40,981 nucleotides of DNA. It comes from Escherichia phage J8-65. This document shows positions 1-40,981 of the stretch, one piece after another. Position 1 is the stretch's first letter, and every line of letters begins with the position of its first letter. Position numbers and translations under genes: made by a program. The notes beneath the pieces are model-generated. The model saw only the letters and a list, made by a program, of their open reading frames with translations, ran no database searches and was not told where the DNA came from. Where the stretch lies: the sequence record NC_025445.1. One strand, written 5' to 3'.

Positions 1-259
1 TCGACCCGAAGGAGCGCCTGCGCCCCCGTACGCCTGTGCGCGTGCGCGTGCATGACGTGTGCGCATTATGCGTGCGTGCCTGCGCGTGCGGTATTGCTCG
101 CGTGCGTGCGGTATAGTTCGCGCGTGCCCGTTTCCATTGTCGCGGTGTGGTGCTGTGTGGTGCTGCGTCCTGCTGCTGCGTGCTGCGCCACTGCTACCAC
201 TGGACGCGCCTGCGCTGGGCTGCTGGTGCTGGGCGGTGCTGCTGTGTGTATCGGTGGCT
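1..259. repeat. left direct terminal repeat (DTR)
   Basis: bases 1-259 are identical to 40723-40981; GT-rich, A-poor; typical T7-supergroup terminal redundancy. Confidence 0.85.
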
Positions 260-686: not shown

Positions 687-715
687 TTGCAATGTTGTTT
701 GTGATTTGCTGTAAT
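687..715 (+). promoter_or_regulatory. sigma70-like early promoter (TTGCAA-N17-TGTAAT)
   Basis: -35 TTGCAA 687-692, 17-nt spacer, -10 TGTAAT 710-715, in AT-rich block upstream of first genes. Confidence 0.5.
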
Positions 716-792
716 TCATCTCGCCGGACGACACAGCGTTAACGTGTCGGACGGTGTAAGACGGTAACACTGTTCTTTAACAATCTGGTGTG

Positions 793-821
793 TTGACAAG
801 GCAAGCTCACTATGCTGTAAT
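793..821 (+). promoter_or_regulatory. sigma70-like early promoter (TTGACA-N17-TGTAAT)
   Basis: consensus -35 TTGACA 793-798, 17-nt spacer, -10 TGTAAT 816-821. Confidence 0.6.
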
Positions 822-928
822 GCTTCCAGTCAGTCAGCAAGCTAAACAGTCATGGATAAAGACGTTAAAACCCACGTAGGCGAACTGATACGGTTTAATC
901 ATCTCAGAATGGGCGCTGATTAAAACGG

Positions 929-957
929 TTGACAGGATGAAACGAGTATGCTGTAAT
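929..957 (+). promoter_or_regulatory. sigma70-like early promoter (TTGACA-N17-TGTAAT)
   Basis: -35 TTGACA 929-934, 17-nt spacer, -10 TGTAAT 952-957; same architecture as 793-821. Confidence 0.6.
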
Positions 958-1007
958 GCACACCAGATTGACAGGCAGCAAGCCAGTCAGTCAGAAGTAA
1001 AAAGTAG

Positions 1008-1036
1008 TTGACAAGCTGAATACGATGTGATGTAAT
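1008..1036 (+). promoter_or_regulatory. sigma70-like early promoter (TTGACA-N17-TGTAAT)
   Basis: -35 TTGACA 1008-1013, 17-nt spacer, -10 TGTAAT 1031-1036. Confidence 0.6.
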
Positions 1037-1467
1037 CAGCACCGAGTTGAAAGGTTGCAAAACAACCTGCTCTGAGTGAACGTAAACTGGCCACGTAGTG
1101 TCACGGCCTCATGGGTATCCGGCGCAGCTAGGAACTGGTGAGGGCACCGCCGAAAGGCAATAGGGGTAGCGCCCGGTGCAAGGGAACGGAGAAGCGCGAT
1201 AGACGCAGCGCAGTATCAGCACAATCCCGAACGTCTTATAAGGCGCGGAGTGTAGCGGGTAGGTAGGCAAGCTGGTAACGGTGAGCCGGACTGCTGGAGG
1301 ACTCCTGAGAGTGGATGCAGACAATATCCACGGCGCGAAATGGGCGGGGCGATTTTTCAGGGTAGTGAATCCGACAAGCCAATCAATGCCAACGAGTGCA
1401 GACTGTACGGCGCGTCACAATGGGTTCACTATCCACCTGAAAATAGCCAACAACTGGAGAAATCAAT

Positions 1468-1857
1468 ATGTACCGTATCTATGCAAGCGCATATCGTCAG
1501 GGCAACGCTGAGTCAGTCAATCTGGCACTGCACTGCAAGGCACTGCGAACGGTGCAGGACATGTTCGGAGTGATTCCGGTCACACTGACAGGCAAGTTCG
1601 ACAATGCGTATGAGTTACGCATGGTCTTCCCTGTCGATGGAATCTACGAAATCCGGCAGGCTGTTAAGCTGTTTTGTAAAGCCTTCGAACAGGACTGCAT
1701 CATGGTAGTGACCAAAGACGACGATGCAATCTTCATGGACTCACCGTATCCGGGCAAGCCTGCTGGCAAGCTGGTCAGCAAGACTAACGAGGAAATGGAA
1801 GCCGGGCAGTTCACTGCTTGGACTTACGACGGTGAGCAATTTTGGGTAGTGGAGTAA
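1468..1857 (+). CDS. hypothetical early protein (129 aa)
   Basis: ATG start, GGAG upstream, first ORF after promoter cluster. Confidence 0.6.
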   Translation: MYRIYASAYRQGNAESVNLALHCKALRTVQDMFGVIPVTLTGKFDNAYELRMVFPVDGIYEIRQAVKLFCKAFEQDCIMVVTKDDDAIFMDSPYPGKPAGKLVSKTNEEMEAGQFTAWTYDGEQFWVVE

Positions 1858-40722: not shown

Positions 40723-40981
40723 TCGACCCGAAGGAGCGCCTGCGCCCCCGTACGCCTGTGCGCGTGCGCGTGCATGACGTGTGCGCATTATGCGTGCGTG
40801 CCTGCGCGTGCGGTATTGCTCGCGTGCGTGCGGTATAGTTCGCGCGTGCCCGTTTCCATTGTCGCGGTGTGGTGCTGTGTGGTGCTGCGTCCTGCTGCTG
40901 CGTGCTGCGCCACTGCTACCACTGGACGCGCCTGCGCTGGGCTGCTGGTGCTGGGCGGTGCTGCTGTGTGTATCGGTGGCT
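40723..40981. repeat. right direct terminal repeat (DTR)
   Basis: identical to 1-259; window ends at last repeat base so the true DTR could be longer. Confidence 0.85.

Follow-up and report, generated by a model that had tools for sequence, protein, structure and literature searches.

The question raised by the left end of the Escherichia phage J8-65 genome is whether four copies of a paired hexamer, lying in tandem ahead of the first gene, are the strong early promoters for host RNA polymerase that a preliminary description had taken them to be. The window, by which the whole stretch of 40,981 nt (NC_025445.1) is meant, begins with a segment that is copied exactly at its right end, and it is therefore the complete linear genome, with direct terminal repeats, of a Bonnellvirus (Autographiviridae, phiKMV/T7-like). 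The closest match to its first 3 kb is Escherichia phage smaasur (~90% identity), in which all genes are on a single strand and run from small early genes through DNA metabolism and the phage RNA polymerase to the structural genes and, last, lysis. Bases 1-1467 of J8-65 are non-coding. The four sites, P1 to P4, sit 430-780 nt into the unique left end, beyond the terminal repeat and near the physical end, and all of them precede the first gene, as had been described; the first gene of the relatives is annotated as "anti-restriction SAMase".

1..259: left direct terminal repeat, 100% identical to 40723-40981
1468..1857, + strand: first gene, S-adenosylmethionine lyase (T3 gene 0.3-type anti-restriction; Pfam PF23780, 91.7 bits, cut-off 28)

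Bases 1-540 have a GC content of 59-67% and a strong skew of T over A on the + strand, and hold abundant short direct repeats of the GCGTGC/GCTGCTG type. An AT-rich zone (540-690, 33-38% GC) separates this GC-rich, repeat-laden end from P1. The zone contains an imperfect inverted repeat (551-575/618-642) and, in many relatives, two copies of AATGATTACAGTAACTTAT, and could be a protein-binding site or one related to replication or packaging. A leftward sigma-70-like site, TTGATA-17-TAGGTT (minus strand, 637-603, 11.9 bits), lies upstream of P1 and recalls the T7 leftward promoter A0; its -35 is unconserved in most relatives, and as a promoter it is a weak lead.

The four sites are as follows.

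687..715, + strand: P1, -35 TTGCAA (687-692), 17-nt spacer, TG at 707-708, -10 TGTAAT (710-715)
793..821, + strand: P2, TTGACA, 17-nt spacer, TG at 813-814, TGTAAT at 816-821, predicted start A828
929..957, + strand: P3, TTGACA, 17-nt spacer, TG at 949-950, TGTAAT at 952-957, predicted start 964-965
1008..1036, + strand: P4, TTGACA, 17-nt spacer, TG at 1028-1029, TGTAAT at 1031-1036, predicted start 1043-1044

An exact search for TTGMMA-N17-TGTAAT returned these four matches, all on the + strand, and none elsewhere on either strand of the 40,981 bp, in agreement with the positions, hexamers, exact 17-nt spacers and orientation first reported. The chance expectation, taken from 100 dinucleotide-preserving shuffles, was 0.01, and 0 of the 100 shuffles reached four. 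Each site also has the TG of an extended -10 at -15/-14 (TGC or TGA before TGTAAT), a feature absent from the earlier account; the genome has five instances of the extended form TGNTGTAAT, 0.95 being expected, and four of the five are P1 to P4. The start of P1 is predicted at about 722-723, and an A-rich, UP-like tract lies immediately 5' of this promoter.

A position weight matrix scan for sigma-70 sites, which had been proposed as a check, was made over the genome with an approximate classical matrix. P2, P3 and P4 scored 11.8 bits; although the G at -11 cost each of them 6.6 bits, they ranked 4th to 6th among the 409,460 combinations of position and spacer, and with A in that place they would score 18.4 bits, the full consensus. 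The scan gave no better rightward candidate in the first 1.5 kb. A strict consensus sigma-70 scan called none of the four sites because it demands A at position 2 of the -10, and the miss was rejected as evidence against them, being an artefact of that requirement. Other -10 registers (TAATnn with a 19-nt spacer, AATnnn with the internal TG as the extended motif, and one-base shifts) were rejected as well; they gave A at -11 plus T at -7 in at most one promoter, and the 17-nt spacing was spoiled in all of them. A small ORF at 851 (23 amino acids, between P2 and P3) was set aside as not coding, and its ATG is ATT in four relatives.

The sites were then compared across 12 genomes, J8-65 and 11 other bonnellviruses (hosts Escherichia, Enterobacter, Kosakonia, Cronobacter and Pantoea), which hold 47 promoter sites in 21 distinct haplotypes. 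The -35 is TTGACA in 35 sites and TTGCAA in 12, the TG at -15/-14 is present in 47/47, and the -10 is TGTAAT in all except P4 of smaasur (46/47), which has TGAAAT. Spacers measure 17 nt in 37 of the sites and 18 nt in 10. The identical architecture ascribed to the four sites holds within J8-65 and not across the 12 genomes, where the P1 spacer is 18 nt in nine and the P4 spacer in two. The spacers of P1 and P4 diverge strongly in sequence between genomes, and P4 has seven spacer haplotypes in the 12 genomes with hexamers that are constant apart from the smaasur TGAAAT. Columns belonging to promoter elements (-35, TG and -10) are invariant in 55 of 56 cases, against 214 of 328 for the other columns (Fisher p = 1.7e-8). 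This comparison of sequences supports strong purifying selection on the -35 and -10 hexamers, unlike the spacers, and invariant hexamers with variable spacers are the pattern to be expected of boxes that a protein would recognise at a fixed distance.

The same data bear on whether the hexamers are promoters at all, or instead belong to a structured leader RNA that one promoter further upstream would produce, or serve in recombination or packaging close to the end of the genome. The region 720-1467 is non-coding, highly conserved and rich in co-varying hairpins, as such a reading would have it, but the hexamers have no predicted pairing, and spacers that vary freely point to boxes spaced by a protein and not to RNA helices. 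The 17-18-nt spacing from TTGACA, combined with TG at -15/-14, is moreover specific to sigma-70 promoters, and the low chance expectation of the pattern also counts against a non-promoter role, which is extremely improbable. Part of the hexamer conservation could nevertheless reflect constraints at the RNA level, because transcription from P1 would run through P2 to P4, in a region with many co-varying hairpins.

The arrangement is close to that of T7, where rightward sigma-70 promoters in tandem likewise follow the terminal repeat, a few hundred nt in from the left end. The two phages are alike in their TTGACA -35 boxes with A-rich upstream tracts, in a boxA followed by TCTGG, in a long hairpin before the first gene and in an anti-restriction first gene (a SAM lyase in T3). 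The J8-65 hexamers align in register with those of the mapped T7 promoters A2 (-10 TAAGAT) and A3 (TACGAT), a match too short to separate homology from convergence, and the same limit applies to a 13-nt identity between P3 and A3, which have AAAACGGTTGACA and, in the spacer, ATGAA in common. The T7 -10 boxes, including that of A1 (GATACT), have A at position 2, whereas J8-65 has TGTAAT with the TG in every copy. J8-65 has four promoters and a relic without a -10 in place of A1, A2 and A3, its boxA follows P1 only and not the whole cluster, and its 430-nt leader holds a structured RNA that a covariance model does not find in T7. From the invariance of the hexamers beside variable spacers, and from the register with A2 and A3, the best reading is a T7-style early sigma-70 cluster; P1 to P4 are quite probably the early promoters of a T7-like Bonnellvirus, read by host sigma-70 RNA polymerase and corresponding to T7 A1-A3.

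Promoter strength is a separate matter. TGTAAT has the T at -7 and matches TATAAT at every position except -11, where 47/47 copies have G in place of a near-universal A. P2 to P4 are consensus elsewhere; they are one transition short of a perfect extended -10 consensus promoter, and that change was never seen across the 12 genomes. G is found at -11 in every copy of Bonnellvirus and of the Pantoea phage LIMEzero, and the early promoters of KP34, phiKMV, LIMElight, GAP227, SP6 and T7 all carry A there. A at -11 and T at -7 vary least among the bases of the -10, and the A at -11 is flipped out and nucleates melting (PMC3753650). Non-consensus bases at -11 "generally strongly decrease promoter activity", and A-11T causes a 300- to 1000-fold loss of fork-junction affinity (PMC3753650). 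Given the invariant G and the normally crippling effect of substitutions at this position, P1 to P4 can be accepted as promoters and, within the non-coding left end, as the best rightward candidates for host polymerase, but not, as had been claimed, as promoters of demonstrable strength.

On the aligned sequences the G at -11 looks selected. It should slow or destabilise DNA opening, and for that reason the promoters are probably kinetically tuned, tightly bound sites rather than simply maximal ones. Carried further, the same facts (the G in 47/47 copies, the need for the -11 base in nucleating melting, and a single transition to full consensus that P2 to P4 have never made) could mean that most of the four are high-affinity, poorly opening polymerase sites which act as landing pads, sinks or regulators, with productive transcription from one only, or dependent on an extra factor or condition; the polymerase would be retained by the consensus -35, the TG and the -12 base, and the G would prevent efficient melting. 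However, the early genes have no better rightward promoter, the phage grows on E. coli K-12, the homologous T7 positions are active promoters, and four conserved copies with UP-like tracts suit productive use better; this extension is improbable. The G might also be tolerated by a different reader, either another holoenzyme (that of sigma-S, for instance, prefers C at -13) or sigma-70 altered by a phage factor that is injected or made very early. The -10 is atypical yet uniform, and C stands at -13 in 35/47 sites. P4, on the other hand, carries A, T or G there, the -35 is TTGACA, perfect for sigma-70 and optimally spaced, and TGTAAT is not known to fit any alternative-sigma consensus. PHROG and Pfam searches of the first ten ORFs detected no sigma-like protein and no polymerase inhibitor like T7 Gp2, a result that says little for proteins as small as Gp2, which are easily missed. 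A different reader is very unlikely.

For kinetically tuned sigma-70 promoters, the preferred reading, comparisons with two well-known promoter types are relevant. Classical extended -10 promoters (TGnTATAAT) offset a poor -35. The bonnellvirus sites share their TG at -15/-14 (47/47 copies) and differ from them in having a consensus -35 and a defect at -11. A C two bases 3' of the -10 (-5) is present in three of the four J8-65 promoters and in both LIMEzero sites, as it is in rrnB P1/P2; at rRNA promoters this C shortens the life of the open complex. The rrn -10 boxes have A at -11 and rRNA downstream, and the bonnellvirus promoters have neither. It may be suggested, tentatively and with less than even confidence, that G at -11 is a selected feature and that the early promoters of Bonnellvirus and Waewaevirus form a natural class, at consensus in all elements (-35, 17 bp, TG, -12, -10 to -7) but the base that nucleates melting, with tight recruitment and slow or short-lived opening, which together with C at -5, UP-like tracts and boxA would be rRNA-promoter mimics that track the growth state of the host. 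If this were true, promoter firing, early expression and DNA entry would follow NTP levels, ppGpp/DksA and supercoiling. Alternatively, the G could prevent sigma-dependent pausing of polymerases that started upstream as they cross the downstream -10 boxes. No link of TGTAAT to phage early promoters was found in the literature searched, and a word search of two papers on Bonnellvirus gave no mention of promoters. A search of IMG/VR for TTGACA-N14-TGNTGTAAT gave scattered single matches and no wider family among the matches listed; the contigs with two sites, few among the matches listed, were rejected as unrelated coding sequence.

Between P1 and P2, just 5' of the P2 -35, lies a boxA that had gone unmentioned, with further elements around it that recall rrn leaders.

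722..756, + strand: hairpin where the P1 transcript is predicted to begin, at the rrn boxB position upstream of boxA (fold, z -1.7)
771..783, + strand: boxA antiterminator-like element TGTTCTTTAACAA, 12/13 identical to rrnB boxA TGCTCTTTAACAA
781..792, + strand: 5' arm of a long-range stem, CAATCTGGTGTG, which resembles rrn boxC and is 100% complementary to 959-970
959..970, + strand: 3' arm of the long-range stem, CACACCAGATTG, overlapping the predicted P3 start

The exact rrn boxA TGCTCTTTAACAA (13/13, by the rrnB leader sequence of E. coli MG1655) is found in 10 of the 11 relatives. The T7 counterpart is CGCTCTTTAACAATCTGG at 812 (T7 boxA reference CGCTCTTTAACAA), where boxA followed by TCTGG lies 3' of A3; the same succession occurs in GAP227 and LIMEzero, and SP6 has two exact copies of boxA, followed by TATGG and TCTGC. 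In SP6 and GAP227 boxA is nested between promoters much as in J8-65. A supposed second boxA after P4, TGCTCTGAGTGAA, was rejected, with only its first six bases matching and five mismatches. In rrn and lambda leaders boxA is bound by NusB/NusE and allows terminators to be read through (PMC2800207). The T7 boxA 3' of the early promoters is described as a genetically supported anti-termination element, and when it is mutated the phage no longer needs the polymerase inhibitor Gp2 (PMC3709561, citing Savalia 2010). In J8-65 boxA lies about 50 nt 3' of the predicted P1 start and would be carried by P1 transcripts only, not by those of P2 to P4.

The likeness to rrn P2 leaders extends to the hairpin upstream of boxA and the C two bases after the -10. 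For the hairpin at 722-756, two haplotypes (GTAGC/GCTAC and GTAAC/GTTAC) each form a hairpin when paired by eye, and the case for it is weak. In the relatives CACTGCTCTTTAACAAT is identical to the E. coli rrnB leader over 17 nt and is followed by a boxC-like CAATCTGG(A)GTGT, the rrn boxC being CAATCTGTGTGGG. The 12 nt that separate boxA and boxC in rrnB are missing here, and boxA and the boxC-like box are fused. The long-range stem flanks P2 and P3. Its two haplotypes, CAATCTGGTGTG/CACACCAGATTG and CAATCTGGAGTGTA/TACGCTCCAGATTG, are matched between the arms in 12/12 genomes despite recombined markers between them. The stem would form only in P1 transcripts, and candidate roles for it are a processing site or a part of an rrn-like boxA/boxC signal.

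P2 and P3 had also been described as sharing a downstream element that suggested duplication of a promoter unit. Two copies of a motif are involved.

826..841, + strand: CAG/AAG-rich motif CCAGTCAGTCAGCAAG, placed where the P2 transcript is predicted to begin
968..997, + strand: fifth TTGACA (968-973) without a -10, followed by the second CAGTCAGTCAG motif, nearly invariant in relatives

The first copy begins 4 nt past the P2 -10. The second, CCAGTCAGTCAGAAG (983-997), begins 25 nt past the P3 -10 and directly behind the fifth TTGACA, and the core common to both is CCAGTCAGTCAG(C)AAG. The unit at 968-997 resembles a promoter unit minus its spacer and -10, and by sequence it looks like P2 so deleted. 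Motifs rich in CAG/AAG are also present 3' of the early promoters in LIMEzero, KP34, Putnam, LIMElight, GAP227 and phiKMV; this recurrence in other genera suggests that the motif is more than a remnant of duplication and belongs more widely to the 5' ends of early transcripts. More broadly, stretches in which CAG, AAG and AGT abound (AAGCAGTAAGCAGTA and CAGTCAGTCAGCAAG are examples) lie about 5-30 nt 3' of the early -10 boxes in several phiKMV-like genera, those of J8-65 being at 826-841 and 972-997.

Recombination between promoter units is seen directly in Escherichia phage Lidtsur (533-575), which has a hybrid of P2 (-35 and spacer) and P3 (-10); three promoters remain and the long-range stem encloses only the single fused promoter. 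The fusion corresponds to a deletion between TATGCTGTAAT segments shared by P2 and P3, and the Lidtsur sequence is thus direct evidence that promoter copy number can change by unequal recombination between units. The shared element is real and the promoter copy number does change by recombination; the second copy of the element, however, has a different offset from P3 and belongs to the fifth TTGACA and to the wider motif, and the duplication of a promoter unit that had been suggested is only partly borne out.

Hairpins continue through the promoter region and the long untranslated leader.

891..927, + strand: hairpin just 5' of the P3 -35, its 3' arm doubling as the A-tract upstream of P3
1053..1067, + strand: hairpin GGTTG-CAAAA-CAACC close to where the P4 transcript is predicted to begin, with invariant TGCTCTGAGTGAACG after it
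1105..1263, + strand: structured domain within the untranslated leader RNA, with 42 pairs and 98% of cells paired
1354..1443, + strand: long near-perfect hairpin just 5' of the ribosome-binding site (-32.3 kcal/mol, z -3.2)

The hairpin at 891-927 has a compensatory pair (A:T to T:A) in four relatives and is broken in one, and that at 1053-1067 has a compensatory change of T:A to A:T in 6/12 genomes. From P4 to the start codon about 425-430 nt are untranslated, with 83% mean column identity; indels in this leader fall in hairpins and are not multiples of three, and of the 120 pairs predicted by RNAalifold 16 have compensatory changes. Within the domain at 1105-1263, 10 pairs show compensatory double changes; neither the observed pairing nor this count was reached in 0/500 shuffles. 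The covariance model of this domain matches LIMEzero (1570-1700) at 33 bits (E ~1e-9) and has no match in T7, SP6, KP34, Putnam, phiKMV, LIMElight or GAP227. Rfam gave no match at the gathering threshold over the whole genome, nor at E up to 5 over 500-2100. The long hairpin at 1354-1443 is invariant in the relatives and is the sole leader segment that BLAST finds in common with LIMEzero; by analogy with the T7 RNase III site R0.3, which occupies the corresponding position before the first gene, it is a candidate RNase III site.

Two further elements were noted among the first genes. A terminator-like hairpin after the third ORF (2937-2959) has 10 pairs followed by a T-rich tail, and is a possible early terminator that a boxA-modified polymerase would read through. 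A 41-bp intergenic element at 1943-1983 folds as a strong hairpin (-23.3 kcal/mol, z -4.3) and is about 97% identical to a motif, AGCCTATAGCGTCCTACGGGGCGCTATGTGAA, of well over 100 Klebsiella phages of the genus Drulisvirus (KP34-like). That motif was predicted as a phage promoter (PMC4411677) and gave no in vitro transcription by the KP34 RNA polymerase (PMC6834552).

Outside Bonnellvirus, the nearest parallel is LIMEzero (Waewaevirus), which has the orthologous sites TTGTCA-17-TGTAAT and TTGACG-17-TGTAAT, an ortholog of P1 among them, annotated as "putative Pantoea specific promoter". Like J8-65 it has a boxA-like CGCTCTTTATACAATCTGG between its promoters, the same leader RNA domain and a SAM lyase as first gene. 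It differs in having only two TGTAAT promoters, with less perfect -35 boxes and, at one site, TTG in place of TGn before the -10. No partner for the CAATCTGG arm was found in LIMEzero, BLAST aligns nothing else of its left end with J8-65 than the one hairpin, and no relatives of it were present in the phage collection searched. The leader RNA domain was found in exactly the two genera with TGTAAT promoters, Bonnellvirus and Waewaevirus. phiKMV, KP34, LIMElight and GAP227 resemble J8-65 in having one to five predicted left-end sigma-70 promoters, long untranslated leaders and CAG/AAG-rich sequence 3' of the -10; unlike J8-65, they all have A at position 2 of the -10 (TAGATT, TAGAGT, TAACTT, TATAGT and others), and unlike J8-65 and LIMEzero they lack a match to the leader RNA model.

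By analogy with T7, the left end of the genome would enter the cell first, and host sigma-70 polymerase would bind P1 to P4, recognising the consensus -35 and, beyond a 17-bp spacer, a -10 that agrees with consensus at 5/6 positions and is preceded by the TG of the extended motif, and would transcribe rightward. The SAM lyase anti-restriction gene would then be expressed first, and transcription would probably help to pull in the remaining DNA. On transcripts from P1, boxA may recruit NusB/NusE and render the polymerase resistant to termination over the 750-nt untranslated leader and over the early and middle genes, about 17 kb in all, that lie ahead of the phage RNA polymerase gene. This antitermination model does not extend to P2, P3 and P4, because only P1 transcripts would contain boxA; these promoters would raise the output of the SAM lyase gene and of other early genes, and their transcripts may stop at sites like the hairpin at 2937-2959. 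The sequences themselves show that the sites are present and in statistical excess, how they are conserved, that they are in register with the T7 promoters, and what boxA and the first gene are; where transcription starts, how strong the promoters are, whether they act in DNA entry and whether Nus factors are recruited is inferred here.

The tandem host promoters and boxA of the T7 left end are already known, and the orthologous LIMEzero sites are annotated; the parts worth experiment are the conserved G at -11 and the leader RNA. The 47 promoter copies in 21 variants amount to a natural experiment in promoter design, one in which the change to A at -11 has never been made, and if the G is functional it would offer a simple handle on how melting nucleation is traded against binding strength in vivo. 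The cluster marks the most likely origin of early transcription in bonnellviruses, which is useful for their annotation and engineering, and it would extend the T7 design of tandem host promoters, boxA, a processing hairpin and an anti-restriction gene to this phiKMV-like lineage.
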